Positions 5,597 through 47,820 of a stretch of 47,820 nt of DNA are shown one piece after another. Both the position numbers and the translations under genes were made by a program. The stretch is from Candidatus Aenigmarchaeota archaeon LH_S6 (GTDB taxonomy: Archaea > Aenigmatarchaeota > Aenigmatarchaeia > QMZS01). The first letter of the stretch is position 1; each line of letters opens with the position of its first letter. The stretch covers positions 1 to 47,820 of the forward strand of contig JAGXOK010000003.1 in assembly GCA_023659935.1 (NCBI GenBank). The letters are read 5' to 3'. Under the pieces are notes generated by a model, which saw only the letters and a list, made by a program, of their open reading frames with translations, was not told where the DNA came from and did no database searches.

Positions 5597-6070
5597 TTAT
5601 CTCTTTTTCATATTTTGTTGATACCAAAAAAACCAGAAAACAAAGATTAGAGCAAGAAACAGAAAGTTCCACAAAAAGTAATGAAGAGGTTTAAACCAGG
5701 AATAAGAAATAGAACCTACATAAATTGTTATAATAACTCTAAACAGATTATAAAAATATAAAGGAATCAGGAATAATAAAGATTTTAATCTACTTGAAAG
5801 TTTAATTCCTAAAGGTAGGAAAACTAAGGCACAAAAAATATAAAATTGCTTCCACCCAGTACAATCAAAAGTTATTATCGACGAGAAATTTTTTGTTATT
5901 ATCTGGTAACCTTGAGTCTGAAATTCAATACCAAATAAATTTAAAAGCCAGGTAACTTGTGAAAAAAAAATTTGCTGGAAAATTTGGATTTCAAAGTGAA
6001 AAAAAGAGAGGAAAAATAGAGGGGTTATCAAAAGAATTGCTCTCAAAATTAATTTTTCCTTATTATTCAT
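5597..6070 (-). CDS. Archaeosortase/exosortase-family membrane protein (small, 157 aa)
   Basis: Polytopic hydrophobic protein with the ordered Cys / Arg / His signature I associate with the exosortase-archaeosortase core: FDCTGWKQ, then YNLFRV, then PLHYFLW. Confidence 0.6.
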   Translation of the reverse strand: MNNKEKLILRAILLITPLFFLSFFHFEIQIFQQIFFSQVTWLLNLFGIEFQTQGYQIITKNFSSIITFDCTGWKQFYIFCALVFLPLGIKLSSRLKSLLFLIPLYFYNLFRVIITIYVGSISYSWFKPLHYFLWNFLFLALIFVFWFFWYQQNMKKR

Positions 6071-18317: not shown

Positions 18318-18554
18318 TTTTATTGTTGATAAGTGGATTACAGTTTATAGGTTTGCACATGGGTGAATTACCCCCAACAAGTTAAGAGGCTTCCTGCTTC
18401 TCCGGGAGGCTAACCTTATTTAAGAGGTGAACTCCTCTCTCCACAAACTTATATTCCGAGTCCTGCCGTAGTGATTTATTTTTGATGTTAATTGAGGCAT
18501 TTAGGTCTCTAGATATTATTAACCCACAATTAGGACATCTATGTGTTCTTATAG
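18318..18554. repeat. Copy 2 of the exact 237-bp direct repeat (part of the longer TnpB remnant)
   Basis: Identical to 18044..18280. It covers tnpB codons up to the stop at 18382-18384 plus the 64-nt downstream flank. Confidence 0.9.
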
Positions 18555-19071
18555 CTAGAGTTTTTGGAACTTTACAACTACACTGACTACAATCTATTGT
18601 TGTTCCTGCTGGTATAACCTGCTTAACTAACCCACCAGATTCTTCCTCTTTGTAGGTTAGCAATTCAGCAAATTTACCCCAACAGACATCTAAAATATGT
18701 TTTGCTAAATAGGGATGATGAACCATTCCTGTTATATTTAAGTTTTCTATTGCAATATATCCATACTGTTGTGTAAGGTGATAACTTAATTTATGTAGAA
18801 AATCTAATCTTTGGTTTGTTAGGTTTTCATAATCCCTTGCTAATTTCACTCTTTGTTTACTCCTATTAATAGACCTCTTCTTCTTTTTGCTTAATCTTCT
18901 GTGTTCTCTTTTGAGTTTCCTTTCTGTTTTTTTAAGAAATCTTGGATTATCAATAACAGTTCCATCTGATAAAGTAGCAAAATTCTCCCTCCTGAAATAG
19001 TTTGAAAATGCTTTGTTTATCCAAGGCAATTCATTCACCTTGGTTTTCTTGCCTTTGGTTAAGTATAAAGG
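18382..19071 (-). pseudogene. tnpB: 5'-truncated IS200/IS605-family TnpB (OrfB) RNA-guided nuclease remnant
   Basis: Retains NFATLSDGTVIDNPRFLKK..., the RuvC-II region YIAIENLNI, the zinc finger CSQC...CPNC and RuvC-III SRDLNASINI. The WED/REC half and the RuvC-I GIDLG Asp are missing: the frame opens only at the TAA just upstream of 19071. No tnpA is present. Confidence 0.85.
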
Positions 19072-31955: not shown

Positions 31956-32025
31956 ACTATCCCTTAATTATAGGTAAATAAAAGTATTAATTAAAATGTT
32001 AATTTTTCTTTTAAATAATCTTTTA
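31956..32025. repeat. Left copy of a 70-bp direct repeat bounding a 1776-bp insertion
   Basis: actatcccttaattataggtaaataaaagtAttaattaaaatgttaatttttcttttaaataatctttta. One mismatch (A/G) relative to 33732..33801. Confidence 0.9.
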
Positions 32026-32125
32026 TAAAGGTGTGTGAAATAAAATAATAAACTAATCAATTCTCTCCAGGAAGCCTAATTTCGCACACTTACTTCACTA
32101 AAGAGATAATTTCCATCTTACTATT

Positions 32126-32728
32126 TTAGATTCTAAATCTGCTGAATTCCCTGAGACTTATTTTGTCGCAGATAATACTGTCAATAGCAGTTATCAATAT
32201 TGCACTCAATGAAGCAAAAACAACAGATGTTTTTCTTATGATCCCTCTAACTTTCTGCCAACCTTTATCCATAGCATTCTTTATAATTGCATTGAATTGC
32301 TCAACTAAGCCTTTTATTGGTTAAGTCAATTAAAAAGGCTTAAGCCAAAAATATAAATTGGATAAAACCTATCTTTTCTTCTTTAGTATCATAGGTGTTT
32401 TAAATCTTCTCTCATCTCTCCTTCTATTCTTTGCTATTATTGGTTTTGCTTTAATTTTCCTGCAGGCTTTTCTATTAGTCTCCAAAGCATAACCAGCATC
32501 TGCTAAAATAAGTTCACAAGAAACCAATAACTCTGGTAAGAAAGGGGAATCATGTTTGTTTCCTGTTGTTAGAATTACTTTTAGAGGCAATCCAAGCTGG
32601 TTTACAGAAAGATGTGTCTTAAAACCTTTGAAGGCTCCTCTCGAGTAAAACCAACTTTGGCATCTGCCTTTCTGAGATGGAGCAATCTCTTTGTTTACCG
32701 TTAATCTTACTATATTGGTACCTCTCAC
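32126..32728 (-). pseudogene. IS4/IS5-family DDE transposase remnant (N-terminally truncated, three in-frame stops)
   Basis: The listed ORF 32369..32728 (…GFKTHLSVNQLGLPLKVILTTGNKHDS…ILADAGYALETNRK…) continues in the same frame after TAG (32369), TAA (32330) and TAA (32321) into …GLVEQFNAIIKNAMDKGWQKVRGIIRKTSVVFASLSAILITAI… This is the typical IS5-type C-terminus that carries the catalytic Glu. Confidence 0.7.
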
Positions 32729-32832
32729 AACGAAAATTGTTAATTTTGGTTAATTTCGCACATCTCTAAAGTGAAAAAATAAAAAAGGTTTTTTCGGATT
32801 GTTCCGTACTCTCCTGACTGGTTAAAGTTGGT

Positions 32833-33447
32833 TTAGTCAGCTACCTGGCTGAGATCAAATACTACCTTGATGACCACGCCATCCCCCTGGGGAGCGTTAC
32901 TATACTTATCAGTAGGATCCAGCGTTACATCGAGCCTCAGTTTTTCCTTCTCATCTGCGGTAAGACCAACCTGGTCAGACAAGTCAGCATTAGCCACCTC
33001 CTTAAGGTCTATGTAGGTATTTCCATCACTATTAGTATCACTAATCCCTGAAAGAAGGTTATTGGCCTCCCAGGTAAGTGTCTCAACCTTAAGAGCTTCA
33101 GCGTACTCAGTATCACTCATATCGTTGCCACTAGCATCCGGAGATTTTGGGTTGTTGCCATCCGCCTCGCCTGTGATGCTGATGCTTAGGTCCATCTGTG
33201 CTCCATCTATGGTTCCAGAATTGAATACAGTTATGGACTGTGCCACATTATCTACTCCAGGTGCCAAATTGGTCAAGCCGCTGACGAAAGCTGCAGAAGT
33301 GTCAGGCGTCAAGTCCAGCGTCCCTGCAGTAAAAGTATTACCTGTTGATTCTTCTGTATCACTGAAAAATGCTCCTGTCATTGCTCCTCCGACTGCCATT
33401 GCAGTTAATCCGATTACTAACACACTCATCAAGATTTTTGTATTCAT
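32833..33447 (-). CDS. TasA/camelysin (peptidase M73-like) family secreted protein with SipW-type signal peptide
   Basis: MNTKILMSVLVIGLTAMAVGGAMTGAFFSDTEESTGNTFTAGTLDL...NLAPGVDNV...FNSGTIDG... parallels B. subtilis TasA (GGGTWAAFNDIKSKDATFASGTLDL...NLKPGD...NNGSL) as I recall it. My hand-counted G+C in two 60-nt samples was 52% and 43%. Confidence 0.75.
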   Translation of the reverse strand: MNTKILMSVLVIGLTAMAVGGAMTGAFFSDTEESTGNTFTAGTLDLTPDTSAAFVSGLTNLAPGVDNVAQSITVFNSGTIDGAQMDLSISITGEADGNNPKSPDASGNDMSDTEYAEALKVETLTWEANNLLSGISDTNSDGNTYIDLKEVANADLSDQVGLTADEKEKLRLDVTLDPTDKYSNAPQGDGVVIKVVFDLSQVAD

Positions 33448-33493
33448 TTTTTCATCTGAATATAATTTGTAAGAAAACTTTAAATACTTTTAG

Positions 33494-33540
33494 ATAATTG
33501 TAATTGTTCCGTAATTGTTCCGTAATTGTTCCGTAATTGC
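33494..33540. repeat. Tandem 11-bp repeat (gtaattgttcc x3 plus partial units)
   Basis: ataattg taattgttccg taattgttccg taattgttccg taattgc, located upstream of the TasA-like gene. The core attgttccgta recurs once at 32798..32808, downstream of that gene. Confidence 0.85.
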
Positions 33541-33731
33541 TTTAAAGTAAAAGTTTCTGTATGAACCCTCTGAGAGTATCTAAGCATATCAAGTCTTCTT
33601 TGAAAACTTTGATGAAAAAGGTCTTACATACTTAAAACCTCTTTGCACTTTCTTACAAACTTCAAAATCTTAGAAATTCTTCTTACCATAACTGACTTAG
33701 AGGCTCTAAATCAGAGGATTTCTACAGAACC

Positions 33732-33801
33732 ACTATCCCTTAATTATAGGTAAATAAAAGTGTTAATTAAAATGTTAATTTTTCTTTTAAATAATCTTTT
33801 A
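33732..33801. repeat. Right copy of the 70-bp direct repeat (immediately upstream of KaiC-like gene 33821)
   Basis: Same 70 nt with a single A/G difference; offset exactly 1776 bp. Confidence 0.9.
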
Positions 33802-33820
33802 AATATAAATAATATATATT

Positions 33821-34486
33821 ATGGCAGAAATAAAAAGAATCAAAACAGGAATTCCGGGTTTAGACAAATTGATTGAGGGAGGTCTTTTAGAAAATTCTGT
33901 AACTTTAGTAAGTGGTGGAACAGGGACTGGGAAAACAATTCTTTCAATGCAATTCCTAAAGAAATTAGCAGAAAACAAAGAGAAGGTTTTATATATTTCA
34001 ACAGAAGAAAATGAGAAGAGTATAAAAGAAGGTTTTAAAATTTTTGGATGGGATCTGGATAAATTGAAAATAGAGGTTATGAATCTTGGCCCTGATGAGT
34101 TAGAAGAAGAGTGGGAGCCTTTATTATCAAATAAAATAGACAGGGAAAAAGTAAAAAGAGTGGTGATTGATTCAATCAGTCTTACAGGTATTTATTACAG
34201 AGATGAATATAGTACGAGGAAATATATTTACAGACTTATTTCCTCTCTAAAAGAGAGGAATATTACCTGCTTATTAACTTCAGAGGTTCCTGAAAATGAG
34301 AAAAGTCTTAGTAAAATGGGTGTAGAAGAATTCGTTTGTGATGGAGTTATTTTGCTGCAATTCCTTGGAATGGGTGGAAAGTATGAAAGGGGTCTGACAG
34401 TAAGAAAGATGAGATGGACTAATCATACTCAGGAAACACACCCCTACAAAATGGTAAAAGGTAGAGGAGTTGTCTTGAGAAAATAG
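33821..34486 (+). CDS. KaiC-like single-domain RecA-superfamily ATPase (intact Walker A)
   Basis: IKTGIPGLDKLIEGGLLENSVTLVSGGTGTGKTILSMQF..., STEE, Walker B RVVIDSIS, and the C-terminal VRKMRWTNH motif. Confidence 0.85.
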   Translation: MAEIKRIKTGIPGLDKLIEGGLLENSVTLVSGGTGTGKTILSMQFLKKLAENKEKVLYISTEENEKSIKEGFKIFGWDLDKLKIEVMNLGPDELEEEWEPLLSNKIDREKVKRVVIDSISLTGIYYRDEYSTRKYIYRLISSLKERNITCLLTSEVPENEKSLSKMGVEEFVCDGVILLQFLGMGGKYERGLTVRKMRWTNHTQETHPYKMVKGRGVVLRK

Positions 34487-34509
34487 TTTATTTTCTTTTA
34501 GTTTTATTT

Positions 34510-34590
34510 ATGGATAAAGTAAAAACCTATATATCAGGATTGGATGAATTAACTGAAGGTGGTTTAATCAAAAAAATAAAAATTATCTAA
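34510..34590 (+). pseudogene. 5' remnant (26 codons) of a KaiC-like gene
   Basis: [26 protein letters not shown]. The first ~60 nt closely match the start of 38918..39637 (MEKVKTYISGLDELIEGGLIPNS...). It ends 8 nt into the convergent fae gene. Confidence 0.7.
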
Positions 34591-35071
34591 AAGGATGTTT
34601 TGCTGCGTTCTTCTTTTCTAGAACTTCCTTTATTGAAGGTTCATTATTCATTGCTCTTTTTATTGCTAATTTTACTGCTTCATAGTTGTATTCATAGATT
34701 TTAGCCTTATCTTTTGCTTGTGGGTGAATAAATACTGAGCAGACTATCACAAGGTCCTCAACTTTCTTTTTTTCTATTACTCCTTCTTCAACACAGTCCG
34801 CAACTGCCTTGGCAACTGCTGCTTGAGCAGGACCAAAGATTAAGCCTGCTTGTTCCATCCCTTTTATTGTTACTTTTGGCACAATTAAAGTTGAAGGTTT
34901 TGGTTGTAAATTTGGCTCCAAAACTGCAAGCAAAGGAGTATGTCCCTCTTTTGGCTCTGCTAAAGAACTTGCAAATGCTTCCCCAACTGCACCTTCCTTA
35001 CCTCCAATTATCAAGTCTATATGAGCAATCTCATTTCCGGCTCCAATCAAAGCTTCGCCAATTTTCACCAT
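34583..35071 (-). CDS. fae: Formaldehyde-activating enzyme
   Basis: From the ATG at 35071: [27 protein letters not shown]...[17 protein letters not shown]...[12 protein letters not shown]...[28 protein letters not shown]...AAKHPF. This aligns along its whole length with the Methylobacterium Fae sequence as I remember it. Confidence 0.85.
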
Positions 35072-35097
35072 AATTATATTAATATATAACAAGAAGA

Positions 35098-35610
35098 CTA
35101 CCTGTGTTTATATATTTTATAAATTTCATAACATTTTCCTGTTTTTTCATCGTATTTTAAATAACTTGCATGGACATGTCTATCTAAAAGCCTTGATAGA
35201 TTCCTTTCCATAAAATACAAACTAAATCTGCATAAAGGACAGGCTCCTCTTTCTAAAGTTTTTCTGTTAACTGTTAAAATACAATTACTTTCCCTAAAAC
35301 TAATAACCATTTCTGTATATCCTTTTTTCTCTTCTATTGATTCAATTTTAAGTTCACCAACTGTTCCTAGCTTAGCCCATAACTTTTCTAAATGTTTGCC
35401 TGCATCTTCAACTTTATCAAATTTTGGCAAAGTCTTAAAACCAACATCTGATAGTGCATAGCCTATTTCTCTCAAAAAAACTTCTCCTGCTCTACCTGCT
35501 ATTTTTGTACCTGCCTTATCTATTGCTTCCAAAACTGAAACTAAATTAGATTCATAACGCTCAACAATTTTTTCTTTGCTCATCCCCTCTATAAACTTTG
35601 GTACTACCAT
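35098..35610 (-). CDS. V4R (4-vinyl reductase-like) domain protein
   Basis: The C-terminal pattern ...FRESNC...[21 protein letters not shown]...[12 protein letters not shown] resembles the Cys-containing V4R small-molecule-binding domain. Operonic with the Roadblock and GTPase genes. Confidence 0.45.
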
Positions 35611-35615
35611 TTTAT

Positions 35616-35981
35616 CTAACTCAAAAGCCTGCTAATTTTATTACTTGCTTTTTCCATACTAATCAAAACTAAACCTATATTTGCATCTTTGTTTATTAAA
35701 CAAACTAGAAAAGCTTCCTTCCCAGACCCTATAGCAACATATTGTCCATCGGTTGCATCTACTAAAACTTTTTTGAATTTACCAATTTTTAATTCATTTG
35801 TAGATGTCTCTGCAGTTCCAACAATTGCTGCAGCCATCGCAGAAACATTTCTTGCATCAACATCTTGAGATAACTTAGAGATAATAAGTAAACCATCTTT
35901 TCTGATAATTAAAGAGCCTAAGATATCACCAACATCTCGCAATTCTTTAAGTATATCTTCCAACTCTTTTTTGCTTACCAT
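35616..35981 (-). CDS. Roadblock/LC7 (MglB-like) domain protein
   Basis: 121 aa. LKELRDVGDILGSLIIRKDGLLIIS...NVSAMAAAIVGTAETSTNEL.IGKFKKVLVDATDGQYVAIGSGKEAFLVCL. Starts 3 nt downstream of the GTPase gene. Confidence 0.8.
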   Translation of the reverse strand: MVSKKELEDILKELRDVGDILGSLIIRKDGLLIISKLSQDVDARNVSAMAAAIVGTAETSTNELKIGKFKKVLVDATDGQYVAIGSGKEAFLVCLINKDANIGLVLISMEKASNKISRLLS

Positions 35982-35984
35982 AAT

Positions 35985-37115
35985 TTATACTTTAAATATT
36001 TTATTTATAAGAACTTTAAAGCCTTTTTCCAAACTTTCAGATTCTAAAGCATTTACGGGTAAGATATCTGCATAGCCAATTCTTTTCTTGATTTCCTCTA
36101 TTTCTAAATGGTTTGGTATGTTTTGCTTATTTGCAAAAACAACAAAAAGAAGTTTTTCTCCCTCAACTTTCTTTAACATCTCTTTTGCTCTACCGAAAGT
36201 CTCAGGAGCTGTTGAATCTATAACTAGAATAATACCCCAAATATCTTTAGATAATACCTTTAAAATCCAGTCAAATCTTTCTTGACCAGGAGTTCCGAAA
36301 ATATCACAAATAATCCCTTTTCTTTCAATATATCCATGGTCTAACGCAACTGTTGTAGATACTCTATCAACAGAAATAGATCCCTCTGAAAGATTTTTTA
36401 CTGTTGTTGATTTTCCAGCATGATATGGGCCAGTAACAAGAATTTTTGGAATATATAAATTAACTCCAGTGAGAGTTATCCAAAAGAAAATCTTTGGACT
36501 AGCCCCAACAAAAAAATAATCCATCCACAAATATTTTTTCTCAACAGAACCAAGTTCTATCACTAAATCAAAACAAGTTTTTATTTTTTCAATTTTCTCT
36601 TTTTCATAACCCCAATCTGTCAACAAAAAAAAGGCTGTTGACCCTCCATGAGATTTTTTTAAATTATTTATAAAATCAACAGTTTCATCAATCCTATAAC
36701 CCATTATACTTTCCAAAGAATCAAAAATATCTATCTTGAAACCTTTTGTTTCTTTTATTGCTTTATCCCACAACTCACTTATTTTCGGTAAAATATTTGT
36801 TCCGTCAATTAGTTTCTCCTTTAAAAAATATTTTGTTTTCTGTTCTTTTCCAAGAGTTGAGGAAATGCAATCAACATATTTTATATTTTTTGTTTCCCAT
36901 CCGTGTTCTTCCAAATTTTTTTCTATTTGCTCTGGTATTTTAGAAGTTGTTAAATAAATTCCTTTATCTTCTTCGGAAATTCTTGTTGAAAAAATATGTT
37001 GGGCAAAACTTGATTTGTCAACTAGAGGACTTGCAAGTAATAGAACAGAACTTTTGTCATCAATACCACCACCTAAGATTTCATTTAGTTTCTCTATTCC
37101 TGTATTTAATTTCAT
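35985..37115 (-). CDS. Fusion protein: degenerate KaiC-like domain + small Ras-superfamily GTPase (MglA/COG2229-like)
   Basis: N-terminal half: TGIEKLNEILGGGIDDKSSVLLLASPLVDKSSF (KaiC-like fold, Walker A lost). C-terminal half: G1 GPYHAGKST, G3 DIFGTPGQERF, G4 ANKQN (Asn where the canonical NKxD has Asp). Confidence 0.75.
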   Translation of the reverse strand: MKLNTGIEKLNEILGGGIDDKSSVLLLASPLVDKSSFAQHIFSTRISEEDKGIYLTTSKIPEQIEKNLEEHGWETKNIKYVDCISSTLGKEQKTKYFLKEKLIDGTNILPKISELWDKAIKETKGFKIDIFDSLESIMGYRIDETVDFINNLKKSHGGSTAFFLLTDWGYEKEKIEKIKTCFDLVIELGSVEKKYLWMDYFFVGASPKIFFWITLTGVNLYIPKILVTGPYHAGKSTTVKNLSEGSISVDRVSTTVALDHGYIERKGIICDIFGTPGQERFDWILKVLSKDIWGIILVIDSTAPETFGRAKEMLKKVEGEKLLFVVFANKQNIPNHLEIEEIKKRIGYADILPVNALESESLEKGFKVLINKIFKV

Positions 37116-37170
37116 AATATATAAAAGTTTTTATTTAAAGGGTTACTTTATTATTAGGGGTTATAATTTT

Positions 37171-37653
37171 ATGCTGCTGGAGAATAAGTTCATAACATTT
37201 GGTCCTGGAAAGTTTGATTCGACAAGAAAAAAGGTTGTGAGGGAATTTATAAAGGAAGGAGATTGTATCTATATAACAGTAAATAAACCAAAAGATATTT
37301 TGGTCAAAGAATTTAGGAATAAAGTTGATGTTAAAAAGATTTTTTTCATGGATTTAGTTTCTAAAACAAATCTATTTTCTGAAACCTCTACCTGTATCTT
37401 TTTGCCTTTCCCAGAAGATTTGCTTGGTCTGGCAATTAAGGTAATGAAAAAAGTTGAAGATAAGAAATTTAAAACAATTATCTTAGATTCTTTTTCAACT
37501 CTTCTATTGTATAATGGTGTTGATAAAACAATAAAATTTATCCATTATCTGGTAAATAAATTAAATGTCCGCAACATTCCTCTCATTGTTATTTCTTTAG
37601 AAATTAACAGAGAAATTAAATCTCAACTATTCCAATTTTTTAAATATGTTTAA
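37171..37653 (+). CDS. Degenerate KaiC-like domain protein (Walker A not intact)
   Basis: The track start at 37015 overlaps the opposite-strand gene, so I use the ATG at 37171. FGPGKFDSTRK replaces the P-loop; a Walker-B-like TIILDSFSTLL is retained. The stop overlaps the start of 37646 by 8 nt. Confidence 0.5.
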   Translation: MLLENKFITFGPGKFDSTRKKVVREFIKEGDCIYITVNKPKDILVKEFRNKVDVKKIFFMDLVSKTNLFSETSTCIFLPFPEDLLGLAIKVMKKVEDKKFKTIILDSFSTLLLYNGVDKTIKFIHYLVNKLNVRNIPLIVISLEINREIKSQLFQFFKYV

Positions 37654-38344
37654 AAAAGTATTCACGGGGATAAAAGGGTTTGATTCAATTGTTGGAGGGG
37701 GTTTCCCTATAAGTAGTATGGTTTTAGTTACTGGCCCAGCAGGAGTTGGAAAAACTACTTTTGGCATACAATTTCTTGTCAAAGGAGCTGAACTTGGGGA
37801 GCCTGGGCTTTATATATCAATGGAGGAAGATGTTGAGAAATTACATATTTTTGAATATTTATTTGGTTTTAATATCAGTAAGTTTGAAAATGAAAAAAAA
37901 ATAAAAATTGTTAGATTTGAATTAATGGAGTGGAAAGAATTATATTCAATAAATAGACTGGAAAAAATGATTGATAAATTGATAAATAAGATAAATGCTA
38001 AGAGAGTTGTTTTAGATTCTAGTTCTATCTTAGGGTATTATCTAAAAAATGAATTTAATTTAAGAAGGTTTCTTTTTAGTCTATCAAAAAAATTTGAAAA
38101 GCATGGGATAACTTCAATTATTATCTCTGATATTCCATATAATTCAAACAAACTTTCTACATTTGGTGTTGAAGAATTTGTTTCAGATGGAATAATTTTG
38201 CTTTCTTATAGCAAGATAAAAACTTATTTCAACAGACGTTTAGAAGTAAAAAAGCTAAGGTTTACAGATTTTTCTAATTTTAAGGTCCCATTTCAAATTG
38301 GTAGGGAAGGTATAGAAGTTTTTCCAACTCAAGAGATTTTTTAA
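37646..38344 (+). CDS. KaiC-like single-domain ATPase (intact Walker A)
   Basis: FTGIKGFDSIVGGGFPISSMVLVTGPAGVGKTTFGIQFL, SMEE, Walker B RVVLDSSS, and LEVKKLRFTD. Confidence 0.85.
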   Translation: MFKKVFTGIKGFDSIVGGGFPISSMVLVTGPAGVGKTTFGIQFLVKGAELGEPGLYISMEEDVEKLHIFEYLFGFNISKFENEKKIKIVRFELMEWKELYSINRLEKMIDKLINKINAKRVVLDSSSILGYYLKNEFNLRRFLFSLSKKFEKHGITSIIISDIPYNSNKLSTFGVEEFVSDGIILLSYSKIKTYFNRRLEVKKLRFTDFSNFKVPFQIGREGIEVFPTQEIF

Positions 38345-38907
38345 ATTTCTTTTTCAAATTTTTCTGTCATTATTTTTGTTTTTTCATTCATTTCTATCAC
38401 TATATCAAAAAATCTTTTAAATTTATCTGCCAACATTTTATTAATTTCGATTACACATGCAACTCTACATTTACTTATCTCTCTCATAAAAACCGCAGAA
38501 AATCTAACTGCTAAATCTGGAGGTATATAATCGAGCAACCTGCTATAGCCTTCTATATAGCATCTTTTTATTGAATTTTCTCTTTTAATAACTTTGAGAG
38601 CATGAATCAAAATACTATTTAAATCAGAAGGATTCACAATTATAATATTATTTGTTGGTTGTGCTTTTCCTGTAACATCTATAAATATTATTTTCCCTTC
38701 CATATACCTTTTTTTAAGTTCTTCTGTTATTTTATTTGCGGGATTCCTAAAAGTTATATATAAAATAGCCCCTCTATCTTTTATTCCTTCTGCAATGAAC
38801 CGAAAAGGAAAACTCTCTACTTGTTCCATAGAGCCTGTTAATAAAACCGTATTCCCTTCCTCTATCTTAATTTCTTTATCAATTTTTTCTATTCCTGTTT
38901 TTATCAT
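38341..38907 (-). CDS. Degenerate KaiC-like domain protein (Walker A lost)
   Basis: MIKTGIEKIDKEIKIEEGNTVLLTGSMEQVESFPFRFIAEG... has a KaiC-like layout without the GxxGxGK(T/S) P-loop. Confidence 0.5.
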   Translation of the reverse strand: MIKTGIEKIDKEIKIEEGNTVLLTGSMEQVESFPFRFIAEGIKDRGAILYITFRNPANKITEELKKRYMEGKIIFIDVTGKAQPTNNIIIVNPSDLNSILIHALKVIKRENSIKRCYIEGYSRLLDYIPPDLAVRFSAVFMREISKCRVACVIEINKMLADKFKRFFDIVIEMNEKTKIMTEKFEKEI

Positions 38908-38917
38908 AAATATATAT

Positions 38918-39637
38918 ATGGAGAAAGTAAAGACTTATATATCAGGATTGGATGAACTAATCGAAGGAGGCCTAATTCCAAATTCAACAACTCTAATTAC
39001 CGGAAAAACAGGAACGGGTAAATCAAGTTTCTGTGTTTCTTTTATCTATTTTGGAGCAATGAGTGGTGAACCTGGAATTTATGTTTTAACAGAGGAAACA
39101 GTCCAAAATATTAAAGAAGAAACCAAAAATGTTTTTGGTTTTAGGTTGGAAAAGTTAGAGGAACAAAATTTATTGAAAATCCTTGCTATTAAACCAGAAT
39201 TCCCTACCCAAGTATCAGGAATAGAAGAATCAAAGATTCTAAAAATATATGTCTATGATCTAGTAGACCAAATTTCAGAATTAGTAAAAGAAATTAATGC
39301 AAAAAGAGTGGTTTTTGATTCTACTTCAATACTTGAATTATTTGTTAAGGATAAGTATCTTGGGAGAATTGCAATTGCTTATTTAATAAATTCTCTAAAA
39401 GAAATGGGGGTTACTTCTCTTCTGGTTGGGACAATTCCAGAAAGTGGTGAAGATTTATCAACCTTAGGCATTATAGAATTTCTTGTTGATGGGATTATAA
39501 AAGTTGAGTTTGTTCCAATTGCAGAAGAGTTCAAGAGAACCTTATCAATTAGAAAGATGAGACAGATTAACCACTCAACTTTCATTCATCCTTTTGAAAT
39601 TACAGAAGAGGGAATAAAAATCCTAAAAATTACCTAA
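38918..39637 (+). CDS. KaiC-like single-domain ATPase (intact Walker A)
   Basis: The ATG at 38918 is used because the track start at 38795 runs antisense through 38341..38907. YISGLDELIEGGLIPNSTTLITGKTGTGKSSFCVSF, TEE, Walker B RVVFDSTS, and LSIRKMRQINH. Confidence 0.85.
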   Translation: MEKVKTYISGLDELIEGGLIPNSTTLITGKTGTGKSSFCVSFIYFGAMSGEPGIYVLTEETVQNIKEETKNVFGFRLEKLEEQNLLKILAIKPEFPTQVSGIEESKILKIYVYDLVDQISELVKEINAKRVVFDSTSILELFVKDKYLGRIAIAYLINSLKEMGVTSLLVGTIPESGEDLSTLGIIEFLVDGIIKVEFVPIAEEFKRTLSIRKMRQINHSTFIHPFEITEEGIKILKIT

Positions 39638-39683: not shown

Positions 39684-40115
39684 ATGGCAAAAGGACAAGT
39701 TTCGTTAGAATACTTGATGACATATGGTATAGCAATAGCGATTATAGTAATAGCAGTAGGAGCATTGTATTCAATGGGTGCTTTTACTCCAGGTAGTTCA
39801 ACAAGCAATCCACCTTGCACACCTTGCTTCAGTGATTTTGCATATAATGAACATACCTATGAGGAACCTTCTTTAAAGTTAGAAGTTAAAAATGGTCCAA
39901 GTGGGATAAATAACTTAAGTTGTACAGCATCTAGTGATTCAGCATCTGCTAATTGTAGTGTTAGTTCTGAAACAGTAAATCCAAATGCAGTATTTACTGT
40001 TAGTATACCAGGGGATGGAACAGCAGATGTAAACACAACAATAAGTTTCATAAAGGAAGGGAGTGAGTTAAATGTAACCAGAACAGAAAGTATATCAAAA
40101 GACTACTTCTCCTAA
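39684..40115 (+). CDS. Archaeal type IV pilin, Epd-type class III signal peptide (candidate major pilin)
   Basis: MAKG/QVSLEYLMTYGIAIAIIVIAVGALYS matches the KGQxSxEYL class III signal peptide signature. 143 aa with a Ser/Thr-rich globular part. Confidence 0.8.
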   Translation: MAKGQVSLEYLMTYGIAIAIIVIAVGALYSMGAFTPGSSTSNPPCTPCFSDFAYNEHTYEEPSLKLEVKNGPSGINNLSCTASSDSASANCSVSSETVNPNAVFTVSIPGDGTADVNTTISFIKEGSELNVTRTESISKDYFS

Positions 40116-45638: not shown

Positions 45639-47820
45639 TTATTTCTTTTCCTTCCTAGTTTTTCTTTTCTTGCCCTTTATAAGACTAACCAAAACTCCAG
45701 CTAATATTCCAATCACTAGAAGAGCTAATAGAGGAATTAAGTAATTTGGCTTTTCTACCTCAGGCTCTGGATTGCAGCTTAAGGTTGTTCTGTTACAACC
45801 ATATTCACAACTATCTATCGTTGTCCAGGTATTGTCTTTGCATTCCTGTAGATTATTATCAGAGCATTTCTTCTCTCCTTCAGTGCAGATTTTTTCTGGA
45901 ATTTCTGCTGGTTTTATTAGATTACAGGTTAAACTTGTTGAATTGCAACCATATTCACAGCTCTCTGCTATTTGCCAGGAATTATTTGAACATCTCTCTA
46001 AGTTATTATTTGAACATCTTTTTTCTCCTTCATCACAAACTTTTACTACTTTTTCCTCTCCACCAAGTGCAAAGTAACTGAATCCTGGAGTTTCTGCTTC
46101 ATAGTTTATATAATCACTTGTTTCATTTAGTAGTTTTGTTTTTAACTTCTGCCATTCCTCACCAGCAAACCTGTAAAGATAAATTTTGTTTTTATCTAAA
46201 TTGTTTTTTGTAATCCAAGATTTATTAACTTCAAATTGGATTTTTGCTTTCTCCAGGTTGGTTTCTTCCAAATTTTCCGTGTTAATCTCCAAATATTTGT
46301 AAGTTTTTCCCTCTATTCCTTTTGTAACAGAAGCTGGCTTTCCTTTTAATTTGGTTACTGTTAGTTTAACATTGTTTGCCTGATTTTTTACTTCTATTTC
46401 AATTTGTTTTAATCCAATTTCTTTCTTTGTTATTTTCATTATTTCTGCAACTCCTGGGGTTAGTTTCATCCAAAGAGAGGATTGTCTTGGTGCTGGTGGT
46501 GTGTAAGTTCCTCCTCCTCCACCACTATAAGAATGACATTTATTGTCTGAGCCACAGTAATCAGAACAGTGAGAGTCTTTATAACATTCCCAACCTGAAG
46601 GTTTGCACAATCCAGATAAACAGTTACCTGAAGAACATTCATTGTCTACTGAACAGGAATTGTCATTCGAATATTTTATATTTAGGTATAAAGTTGTTGA
46701 ATTTACTTTGTTTCCAGCATTGTCAGTTGCTTCAACAGTTATTGTATGATTTCCTTCTGATAAAGTTGATAGATTTACTGAAGTTAGGGTGTTGTTATCT
46801 GCTGTTCCTGTTTCGTTTGAATCTCCATCTATATAGAAAGTGTATTCTATTGCAGAATCTAAATTATCTGTTAGATTGAAAGTTATTTCTGGAGTATTAT
46901 CATTTGTCCAGGTATCGTTTTCTGGGGAGGTGATTTCTGAGGTTGGATTTGTTGTATCTAGTAGAATTGTCTTTGTTTCTGTCTGATTTGTATTTCCTGC
47001 TGTATCATTAATATAAGCCTTTATTGTGTAAGTTCCATCTGATAAGGAAGTTTTATTCTCCCAATATATATCTCCATCCTGGTTATCAAAACTTTCATTA
47101 GTTCCATTCCATTCAAATAGAACAGTATCTTTGTTTGTATCTGAGGCTGTTATATTTATGAAAGTCCAGTTTTGGGAGTGATTTCCTGTTTCTGTTGTTG
47201 GGTCTGTGAAGTTTATTGTTGGGTTTGTTGTGTCTATTTCTATTGTCCTTGTTTCTGTTTTATTTGTATGTCCCAGAGTATCATTTACTGTTGCGTTTAA
47301 GTAATAGGTATCATCTGGTAAACCCGTGTAATTAATATAGATTTGTGTGTCTGAGGTTGTGTTTTCTTGGTATAGTCCTGTTGAGTTGTAGAGGGAGAGA
47401 GTTAGGGTATCAAAGTTTGTATCTGATGCAGTTACATTTGCTGAGATCCAGTCTTGGGAGTAATTTCCTGTTTCTGTTGTTGGGTCTGTGAAGTTTATTG
47501 TTGGGTTTATTGTATCTATTTCAATATTAGTTATTGTTGTTGTATTTGAATTTCCTGCTGTATCATAAGCAGTTGCAGTTATGTTATAAACTCCATCTGG
47601 AGCATATAAAGATACTTCCCAATCGGAAGAAGAATTTGTTGTTGAGTTTATGATTGTACCTCCTTGCTTTATTGATATATTTGTATAGTTTAGGTTAAGG
47701 TCTGATGAGGTTCCGTTTATAATGTAATTGTTTACAAGGGAATCTGAAGAAGGATGGGTTATTGATATTGTTGGGTTTGTTGTGTCTATTTCTATTGTCC
47801 TTGTTTCTGTTTTATTTGTA
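45639..47820 (-). CDS. Large surface protein, 5'-truncated by the window edge: tandem Ig-like domains, Cys knot, PGF-pre-PGF-like domain, two Cys-rich modules, TM anchor with basic tail
   Basis: The track starts at a TTG (46610), but hand translation upstream stays open as far as I checked (about 46980): ...TLSEGNHTITVEATDNAGNKVNSTTLYLNIKYSNDNSCSVDNECSSGNCLSGLCKPSGWEC... The C-terminus is NYLIPLLALLVIGILAGVLVSLIKGKKRKTRKEKK. Confidence 0.8.
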   Translation of the reverse strand, partial: TNKTETRTIEIDTTNPTISITHPSSDSLVNNYIINGTSSDLNLNYTNISIKQGGTIINSTTNSSSDWEVSLYAPDGVYNITATAYDTAGNSNTTTITNIEIDTINPTINFTDPTTETGNYSQDWISANVTASDTNFDTLTLSLYNSTGLYQENTTSDTQIYINYTGLPDDTYYLNATVNDTLGHTNKTETRTIEIDTTNPTINFTDPTTETGNHSQNWTFINITASDTNKDTVLFEWNGTNESFDNQDGDIYWENKTSLSDGTYTIKAYINDTAGNTNQTETKTILLDTTNPTSEITSPENDTWTNDNTPEITFNLTDNLDSAIEYTFYIDGDSNETGTADNNTLTSVNLSTLSEGNHTITVEATDNAGNKVNSTTLYLNIKYSNDNSCSVDNECSSGNCLSGLCKPSGWECYKDSHCSDYCGSDNKCHSYSGGGGGTYTPPAPRQSSLWMKLTPGVAEIMKITKKEIGLKQIEIEVKNQANNVKLTVTKLKGKPASVTKGIEGKTYKYLEINTENLEETNLEKAKIQFEVNKSWITKNNLDKNKIYLYRFAGEEWQKLKTKLLNETSDYINYEAETPGFSYFALGGEEKVVKVCDEGEKRCSNNNLERCSNNSWQIAESCEYGCNSTSLTCNLIKPAEIPEKICTEGEKKCSDNNLQECKDNTWTTIDSCEYGCNRTTLSCNPEPEVEKPNYLIPLLALLVIGILAGVLVSLIKGKKRKTRKEKK
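45774..46035. repeat. Dispersed duplicate (copy B) of the Cys-rich module coding region
   Basis: See 45104..45365. Confidence 0.8.
46930..47820. repeat. Tandem coding repeats (period about 270-282 bp, one Ig-like domain each)
   Basis: Domain-boundary motif attgttgggttt(g/a)ttgt(g/a)tctattt... occurs at ~46945, 47215, 47497 and 47767. 47215..47268 and 47767..47820 are an exact 54-nt match. Confidence 0.8.

Follow-up and report, generated by a model that had tools for sequence, protein, structure and literature searches.

A catalytically dead KaiC::GTPase fusion, its Roadblock neighbor and surrounding KaiC-like paralogs in an Aenigmarchaeota locus: a probable lineage-specific elaboration of a conserved archaeal signaling module

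In the MglA/MglB system of Myxococcus and Thermus, MglA is under the control of MglB, a Roadblock dimer, and in TRAPP Bet3 is a V4R-related component of a Rab exchange factor (PMC10933270). The Asgard genes for parts of the Rag/Ragulator and Rab/TRAPP type are generally not arranged in operons (PMC10933270). KaiC-like signal-transduction hubs and inactivated KaiC (iKaiC) domains were described by Makarova, Galperin and Koonin in 2017, a work taken here as it is cited in PMC5847659. KaiC families and the Roadblock family arCOG02603 were found beside archaeal pilin operons, where they are predicted regulators (Makarova, Koonin and Albers 2016, PMC4858521). Signal transduction in archaea is poorly understood, and the proposal that KaiC-like ATPases act as its hubs has hardly been tested. 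Here we describe a cluster of KaiC-like genes around a gene encoding a fusion of a dead KaiC-like domain and a small GTPase. The cluster occupies positions 33,821–39,637 of a 47,820-nucleotide stretch of contig JAGXOK010000003.1 (positions 1 to 47,820, assembly GCA_023659935.1) from Candidatus Aenigmarchaeota archaeon LH_S6; this whole stretch is called the window. The locus leads to a concrete and very widespread module that combines a dead KaiC scaffold, a Ras-like GTPase and a Roadblock regulator.

We interpret the locus, with a probability of roughly 0.6, as a lineage-specific elaboration of a conserved archaeal signaling module built on a small-GTPase switch. The core of this module consists of the fusion, a Roadblock protein and a second KaiC-like pseudo-ATPase, KaiP. 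The arrangement resembles MglA/MglB in that the gene of a Ras-superfamily GTPase stands beside a Roadblock/LC7 gene, the G3 motif of the GTPase, like that of MglA, reads xxPGQ without the canonical Asp, and the window and a few other loci adjoin type IV pilin genes. Unlike MglA, the window GTPase is fused to a dead KaiC/RecA-fold domain and is joined in the module by another KaiC-like pseudo-ATPase; its sequence is closer to Arf than to MglA, the Roadblock protein is much closer to archaeal Roadblocks than to MglB, and partners of the RomR/RomX type were not seen here. Membership in the MglA clade proper was rejected, because the GTPase is not a stand-alone protein and its best 60 PDB matches were Arf, Arl, Rab and Ypt proteins, with no MglA among them.

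With the archaeal KaiC hubs and iKaiC proteins, as far as these are reported in the citing article, the locus shares expanded single-domain KaiC-like paralogs, P-loop-less adaptor domains and variable sensors (V4R, FIST, Cache-HAMP). In the 2016 pilus census, KaiC and Roadblock genes are separate accessory genes, whereas here they form one module that lies mostly away from pilus genes. The eukaryotic and Asgard Rag/Ragulator and Rab/TRAPP systems likewise combine a small GTPase with Roadblock/longin-fold regulators and a Bet3/V4R-fold subunit, and the Roadblock and Ras-like GTPase of the module are parts that eukaryotes use there. However, these systems have no KaiC/RecA-fold component, and the likeness of a 170-residue orphan protein of the window to V4R/Bet3 is at the level of fold only. 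The original prediction had not recognized the combination of genes as a described system. This stands for the fusion module, as no published description of fusion, Roadblock and KaiP together was found in the literature searched, to which the 2017 work of Makarova, Galperin and Koonin did not belong; the 2016 census was the only publication found that links KaiC, Roadblock and small GTPases, and beside it the searches led only to a two-component census, again with the 2017 work outside the scope. It does not stand for the component ideas: KaiC hubs, inactivated KaiC, Roadblock–GTPase pairs and KaiC/Roadblock genes in pilus loci are already published.

The N-terminal half of the fusion matched the KaiC family PF06745 over residues 4–191 (E 2e-10, 40.8 bits; Pfam gathering cut-off 26.6 bits), and the C-terminal half matched Arf/Ras families over residues 224–373 (E 1e-11), with 45.2 bits for Arf PF00025 (cut-off 22.3) and 44.4 bits for TIGR00231 (cut-off 42.5). 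The P-loop of the N-terminal half, predicted to be destroyed (ASPLVDKSS), was indeed found to be lost, and the catalytic Glu pair is gone too. The GTPase motifs are G1 GPYHAGKS, G3 GTPGQ and G4 NKQN. An AlphaFold2 (AF2) model of the fusion, computed from 29 sequences, reached a predicted local distance difference test score (pLDDT) of 88.8 and a predicted template-modeling score (pTM) of 0.83. In this model, a single long strand (217–228) passes from the KaiC-like domain into β1 of the GTPase. The modeled N-domain superposed on PH0284 (PDB 2dr3), a hexameric KaiC-like RecA-superfamily ATPase of Pyrococcus horikoshii, with a target-normalized template-modeling (TM) score of 0.81 and a root-mean-square deviation (rmsd) of 2.5 Å. 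PH0284 was the best match of this domain by structure and also by PDB sequence (E 1e-9), which supports a ring-forming fold in the fusion. PH0284 stands alone and was deposited as an ATPase, whereas Walker A and the catalytic glutamates are gone from the fusion domain.

The fusion has 1123 relatives among database proteins at E ≤ 1e-5. Nearly all of the best 120 of these are 357–415 amino acids (aa) long and were covered nearly in full, and the relatives are named only as "GTP-binding protein", "small GTP-binding protein" or "ATPase domain-containing protein". The fusion is not spanned by any curated family of Pfam or NCBIfam. In all 118 aligned members, the P-loop of the N-domain is degenerate, typically reading xDxxVDK[SA], and G1 (GPxxAGKS), G2 (GTT) and G3 (FGTPGQERF) of the GTPase are near-invariant. 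Because the fold is kept and the dead P-loop is conserved throughout these members, the N-domain is classed, on its sequence and model, as an iKaiC domain. The G4 motif varies among the 118 relatives (NKQD in 75, NFQN in 30, NKAN in 8), and is NKQN in both the window (36122–36136, fusion residues 327–331) and its sister strain. In other GTPases, replacement of the G4 Asp with Asn shifts the preference towards xanthine nucleotides. The loss of this guanine-specifying Asp suggests an altered nucleotide specificity in part of the fusion family.

The spread of the fusion was determined by scanning species-representative genomes for full-length matches. These were found on the DPANN side in Aenigmatarchaeota, Nanohaloarchaea, Woesearchaeota, Altiarchaeota, Parvarchaeota and Nanoarchaeota, and elsewhere in Methanosarcinales/ANME-2/Methanoperedens, Methanobacterium and Archaeoglobaceae. 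The covalent KaiC–GTPase link pointed out from the sequence is thus widely conserved, together with its Roadblock partner. The module also occurs in Methanosarcinales, Methanobacterium and Archaeoglobaceae, and its proposed interactions would be directly testable if cultured relatives carry it. In a Hadarchaeota locus (L036, 71–1293), two overlapping, adjacent ORFs encode the dead-KaiC domain (183 aa) and the GTPase (224 aa) separately, and a KaiP whose P-loop is intact comes next. The arrangement represents either a split form of the fusion or a frameshift; as separate neighboring genes, the two parts argue for a functional unit. In Foldseek searches, the two-domain fusion aligned to the double-domain cyanobacterial KaiC over ~440–460 columns at 11–14 Å rmsd, with the GTPase in the place of the second KaiC domain by sequence order, not by orientation.

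For the neighborhood survey, open reading frames (ORFs) were called in 32 loci from other genomes, containing 33 fusion genes, and scored with profiles made from the window sequences and those of relatives. A Roadblock gene was located within 300 bp of 28 of the 33 fusion genes, several of the remaining cases being cut by contig ends, and a KaiC-like gene within 300 bp of 29. The gene order is KaiP–fusion–Roadblock in DPANN, some Methanosarcinales and Methanoperedens, and Roadblock–fusion–KaiP(–KaiP) in Methanobacterium and ANME-2. In the motif table, KaiP was always without catalytic glutamates. Its Walker A motif is graded, from intact (GPPGSGKT) through replacement of the Thr with Glu or Asp (GKE, GKD) to complete absence (GPPSTERE in locus L011, GSMEQVES in the window). 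V4R genes were present within 5 kb in six surveyed loci, FIST sensor proteins occupy the V4R position in L005, and canonical KaiC-like genes were within 5 kb in eight loci. A combination of genes peculiar to this stretch is not supported: the core of KaiP, fusion and Roadblock is widespread in archaea, and the window is a lineage-specific elaboration of this module.

Two further arrangements were observed in the surveyed loci. A Halobacteriota metagenome-assembled genome (L025, 9276–15824) carries two tandem fusion–Roadblock copies, with V4R-like ORFs after both and extra Roadblock genes between them, so that the whole module appears to be duplicated locally. Five small genes (100–131 aa) lie on the opposite strand beside the module in L001 (9830–11593) and at the equivalent places in L003 and L004. 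One of these is Roadblock-like and the others are without a Pfam match; they may be further regulators of the Roadblock/longin type.

Besides the fusion, the window cluster contains three canonical KaiC-like ATPases (K1–K3), a short remnant of a K3-like gene and two degenerate ORFs (D1 and D3). All seven pieces that had been counted as KaiC-like are KaiC-related. PF06745 scored 192.3 bits with K1, 203.1 with K2 and 193.8 with K3, all above the cut-off. A protein was considered competent for catalysis if it carried Walker A (GxxxxGK[ST]), a catalytic Glu pair after β2 and Walker B (hhhhD). Among the KaiC-like proteins of the window, only K1, K2 and K3 have all three; their Walker A motifs are intact, as originally read, and the Glu pair and Walker B are kept as well.

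Conservation of the cluster in relatives was confirmed. The sister strain L008 (GCA_023658875.1) holds the whole set K3–D3–K2–D1–fusion–Roadblock–orphan–Fae–K1, with every ORF intact. L011, a distinct species with a 53% identical fusion, has a K3-like gene, a K2-like gene, a D1-like gene, a P-loop-less KaiP and the fusion together in rearranged order, and these five shared gene families are 33–55% identical to the window at the protein level. The K2 ortholog in L011 scored 229 bits and has the identical C-terminal GIEVFPTQEIF, and the K3 ortholog scored 244 bits; K1 has no specific ortholog there, its best L011 match being the K2-like gene. As in the window, the D1-like gene of L011 lies directly upstream of the K2-like gene. 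KaiP of L011 is still located directly upstream of the fusion, and by this order the D1–K2 pair in the window lineage now lies between KaiP (D3) and the fusion. The 26-codon remnant proved to be a true 5′ fragment of a K3-like gene: it shares 18 of its first 20 residues with the N-terminus of K3, the nucleotide identity over the first 60 nt is ~85%, and the remnant is retained in the sister strain with 95.7% conservation.

The destroyed P-loops reported for D1 (GPGKFDST) and D3 (TGSMEQVES) were also verified, and the catalytic Glu pair is absent from both. D1 alone scored below the Pfam cut-offs (PF06745 20.8 bits versus 26.6, DUF835 PF05763 25.4 versus 33.1), and D3 had no Pfam match and only a match at 1e-3 to NCBIfam KaiC_arch_3. 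The homology of both to KaiC is transitive only, as judged from sequence, but through related genomes they emerged as genuine KaiC relatives, and the profile searches did not show them to be unrelated. An exhaustive HMMER search among 1.84 billion cluster representatives returned 1139 relatives of D1 at E ≤ 1e-3, most of them stand-alone proteins of 170–195 aa. Of ten relatives scanned, nine were above the Pfam cut-off for DUF7504 (PF24336) and six above that for KaiC. By these matches D1 is assigned to a large family of truncated, inactivated KaiC-like domains (DUF7504/iKaiC). One D1 relative, P0204 (557 aa), is a receptor in the membrane that combines dCache and HAMP domains with a D1-like inactivated KaiC domain at its end; here the dead domain is the cytoplasmic module of a sensor, and this architecture points to its use as a signaling output or adaptor. 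A 151-aa gene beside a KaiC gene in L005 was tried as a counterpart of D1 and rejected, as it encodes a membrane protein without similarity to D1.

D3 matched KaiC-like genes upstream of the fusion in L005, L001 and L007 (blastp 6e-23, 3e-20 and 8e-19), and in the scoring of the neighborhood survey its match to such a preceding KaiC-like gene in other genomes was at 3e-22. These D3-matching genes of ~230 aa, directly upstream of the fusion in other Aenigmatarchaeota, carry PF06745. D3 is 33% identical to KaiP of L011, which is itself P-loop-less, and is short of ~36 C-terminal residues. From these similarities D3 is identified as a displaced, truncated copy of KaiP, the usual partner of the fusion, and it is possibly decaying. 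As a member of this partner family, where loss of the P-loop is recurrent, D3 is classed with the iKaiC proteins as well. The ratio of nonsynonymous to synonymous substitution rates (dN/dS) was calculated for every gene of the cluster against the sister strain, from just 2–20 substitutions per gene, a distance too short for informative ratios. D1 had 7 nonsynonymous and 6 synonymous changes (dN/dS 0.30 on 13 substitutions). D3 had 7 nonsynonymous changes and 1 synonymous change, a dN/dS of 1.7 on 8 substitutions that are too few to judge selection. The chance of at most one synonymous change among these eight, calculated by hand for an assumed synonymous-site fraction of ~0.22, is ~0.45 under neutrality and ~0.07 at the pooled ratio of the neighboring genes.

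The inactive copies belong to conserved families and are not random wrecks. The pairing of active with inactive copies in the original prediction held for D1 and K2, a pair conserved in L011, but not for D3 and K3, because D3 is the partner of the fusion and not of K3.

The Roadblock protein scored 47.8 bits with PF03259 (cut-off 23), and its best PDB match was the archaeal Roadblock 9jue_D (1.5e-17), with LAMTOR2 and MglB weaker. Profile searches confirmed the predicted identities of fusion, Roadblock and Fae in the minus-strand operon. The orphan was the member described as V4R-like, and this description gained no support from sequence, but a medium-confidence model suggests it at the level of fold. 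The orphan had no match in Pfam, NCBIfam or a PDB phmmer search, its hhalign probability against V4R proteins of related loci was 0.4%, and V4R identity (PF02830) at the sequence level was rejected on these four comparisons. Word-indexed homolog searches with the orphan, as with D3, gave near-identical sequences only. A single-sequence AF2 model of the orphan (pLDDT 67, pTM 0.64) matched YslB, BcsD, DmpR/MopR/PoxR, Bet3/TRAPPC3 and H-NOX in the PDB by Foldseek (E 4e-4 to 1e-2, TM ~0.5). These matches are coherent, as all belong to the V4R/Bet3/H-NOX/BcsD fold group, and DmpR, MopR and PoxR contribute phenol-sensor V4R domains. A V4R/Bet3-type protein that acts as a putative small-molecule sensor or GTPase regulator is plausible from this model, because authentic V4R genes hold comparable positions in six other loci. 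Fae scored 266.8 bits with TIGR03126 (cut-off 118). Among the surveyed loci it adjoins the module only in the window and the sister strain, and it is a lineage-specific passenger, the last gene of the minus-strand operon.

In the mechanism that we propose, the core would be a catalytically dead KaiC/RecA-fold N-terminal half that is rigidly joined to a C-terminal Arf/MglA-like GTPase. The Roadblock/LC7 protein most likely sets the GTP/GDP state of this GTPase, by analogy with the action of MglB on MglA. KaiP, here D3, would be the second KaiC-like pseudo-ATPase partner, without catalytic glutamates and often with the P-loop, or at least its threonine, lost. Since KaiC-like proteins function as rings, we infer that the fusion N-domain, KaiP and D1 serve as oligomerization or docking scaffolds. 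By analogy with PH0284-like hexamers, the dead domains would display the GTPase and link it with K1–K3, the active KaiC-like ATPases, with D1 as a putative dedicated adaptor of K2. The V4R/Bet3-fold protein probably supplies a small-molecule input or an activity like that of an exchange factor. This scheme starts from the observed homologies, motif losses, conserved fusion and conserved neighbors, and the physical interactions, the direction of signal flow and the output are what it would add to them. A further-reaching version, which we consider doubtful, would see in KaiP, fusion and Roadblock an undescribed pan-archaeal mixed pseudo-ATPase ring that displays Ras-like GTPases, couples an ATP- or phosphorylation-driven KaiC ring to a Roadblock-regulated switch, and, in DPANN symbionts, gates pili or adhesins used to attach to the host.

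Several observations weigh against a conserved GTPase switch elaborated in this lineage. With NKQN and not NKQD in G4, the fusion may be no conventional GTP switch. Its GTPase is nearest to Arf in the PDB, not to MglA, and the window Roadblock resembles MglB weakly (E 0.05). The V4R assignment of the orphan stands on one single-sequence model with a pLDDT of 67. Canonical KaiC-like genes lie near the module in about a quarter of the loci, and their participation is either optional or coincidental. At the sequence level, D3 is truncated, the adjacency of KaiP and fusion is broken, and the 7:1 ratio of substitutions gives no sign of purifying selection; with D3 displaced and truncated in this way, the window module may lack a working partner.

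In an alternative reading, no integrated seven-part system exists, the density of KaiC-like genes results from local duplication, rearrangement and decay, and D3 and the remnant are pseudogenes. The dead 5′ fragment of the K3-like gene and the state of D3 (displaced, ~36 C-terminal residues short, P-loop-less and with its 7:1 changes) are what such a history would leave, as are the different gene orders of the window and L011, the transposase fragment and the TnpB gene within the window, and a 1.75-kb insertion that the sister strain does not have between K1 and adhesin. Against it stand the large conserved families to which fusion, Roadblock and D1 belong, the recurrence in L011 of the D1–K2 coupling and the five gene families at 33–55% protein identity, the intact state of every ORF, D3 included, in both strains, and the 6 synonymous to 7 nonsynonymous changes of D1 (dN/dS 0.30). 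We regard this alternative as quite unlikely. It is highly improbable that the cluster works as a KaiC timekeeping oscillator, regulates a motor in the manner of ArlH or has a recombination function of the RadA/RadB type. The KaiC, ArlH and RadB models each score K1–K3 to some extent, but every score is far below the curated cut-offs: 104.6–111.1 bits versus 546 for TIGR02655 and 143.8–164.6 versus 408 for NF006799 (circadian KaiC), 52.4, 31.6 and 41.1 bits versus an equivalog cut-off of 215 for NF052589 (ArlH), and 18–32 bits versus 172 for RadB. Moreover, K1–K3 are single-domain proteins, and neither KaiA, KaiB nor archaellum genes were present among the window ORFs scanned. Membership in an anti-phage defense system was ruled out by PADLOC, whose defense models gave generic P-loop-level matches of at most 24.5 bits with K1–K3 and no match with the other five proteins.

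A connection of the cluster with pili had been drawn from proximity, and the module could in that case regulate the deployment of type IV pili or adhesins in the manner of MglA/MglB, with possible control of host attachment by DPANN symbionts. The pilin gene next to K3 (39684–40115) encodes an archaeal class-III (type IV pilin) signal peptide, and other pilin-like or surface genes flank the cluster as well. The window as a whole is rich in genes for surface structures, among them those for a 2823-aa adhesin, a SipW/camelysin-type protein, a PGF-pre-PGF protein, TadC-like proteins and further pilin-like proteins. K1 and this giant adhesin gene are immediate, divergent neighbors in the sister strain. 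Pilin-like genes abut the module in the window, in L008, in L023 (Methanobacteriaceae) and in L035 (Parvarchaeota), and KaiC arCOGs and Roadblock arCOG02603 occur in many archaeal type IV pilus loci (PMC4858521). Nevertheless, the connection does not appear to be a conserved property of the module, as pilin neighbors were found in only two of the 32 other loci, in a screen by regular expression and phmmer that has low sensitivity. The eight Aenigmatarchaeota loci with usable flanks (L001–L007, L011) showed no pilin or pilus-machinery gene in these flanks, which hold genes of housekeeping, metabolic or sensor-domain type, for tRNA synthetase, TFIIB, histone, IF5A, PIN, POR, FIST or KaiC-like proteins. 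No pilus ATPase gene lies near the window cluster, and the TadC-like genes are 25 kb away. Genes for surface proteins are very frequent in small DPANN genomes, which makes a chance adjacency likely. We thus consider pilus regulation rather unlikely as the role of the module, although in DPANN its place beside genes for a pilin and a giant adhesin would make such a switch a candidate for the regulation of host attachment.

The features of the cluster are listed in Table 1. The ORFs, coordinates, P-loop strings, overlaps and spacers given in the original prediction were all reproduced by the ORF map and the sequence. D1 and K2 overlap by 8 nt and form a putative translationally coupled pair, D3 and K3 are divergent with a spacer of 10 bp, and the 3′ ends of K2 and D3 overlap by 4 nt. 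On the minus strand, the gaps are 3 nt between fusion and Roadblock, 5 nt between Roadblock and orphan, and 26 nt between orphan and Fae; the last is reduced to 5 nt if Fae starts at an alternative TTG at 35092.

Table 1. Features of the KaiC-like gene cluster, with positions in the window
Feature	Position	Strand	Basis or remark
K1, canonical KaiC-like ATPase, 221 aa	33821..34486	+	Walker A GGTGTGKT; PF06745 1e-56
K3-like remnant, 26 codons, start MDKVKTYISGLDELTEGGLI...	34510..34590	+	Overlap of its end with the stop of Fae
Fae, formaldehyde-activating enzyme, 162 aa	34583..35071	-	PF08714 1e-74; TIGR03126
Orphan protein, 170 aa, probable V4R/Bet3/H-NOX-type fold	35098..35610	-	Predicted structure
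Roadblock/LC7 (MglB-like) protein, 121 aa	35616..35981	-	PF03259 1e-12
Dead-KaiC::GTPase fusion, 376 aa	35985..37115	-	KaiC PF06745 and Arf/Ras
Fusion, inactivated KaiC-like domain	residues 1 to ~215 = 36471-37115	-	
Fusion, small Arf/MglA-like GTPase	residues ~216 to 376 = 35985-36470	-	
D1, truncated inactivated KaiC-like protein, 160 aa, DUF7504/DUF835-type	37171..37653	+	Profiles of relatives
K2, canonical KaiC-like ATPase, 232 aa	37646..38344	+	Walker A GPAGVGKT; PF06745 5e-60
D3, P-loop-less, C-terminally truncated KaiP copy, 188 aa	38341..38907	-	blastp to KaiP genes
K3, canonical KaiC-like ATPase, 239 aa	38918..39637	+	Walker A GKTGTGKS; PF06745 4e-57

The surroundings of the cluster differ between the two strains. 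The pilin 39684–40115 has a dN of 0.143 and a dS of 0.124 and differs in length, with a dN of at most 0.019 for the genes of the KaiC cluster, a pattern that fits rapid or diversifying pilin evolution. The insertion relative to L008, ~1.75 kb long (window ~31994–33739), separates the giant adhesin gene from K1 and contains a secreted SipW/camelysin-type (Peptidase_M73) protein (32833–33447) and a DDE transposase fragment (32369–32728). The adhesin is 77–90% identical between the strains, with rearrangements of its repeats. Elsewhere in the window, a short exosortase/archaeosortase-like ORF is located at 5597–6070, slightly below the Pfam cut-off, a TnpB/IS605 OrfB-type gene with a Cas12f-like TNB domain at 18382–19038, and the PGF-pre-PGF surface protein at 45639–46610.

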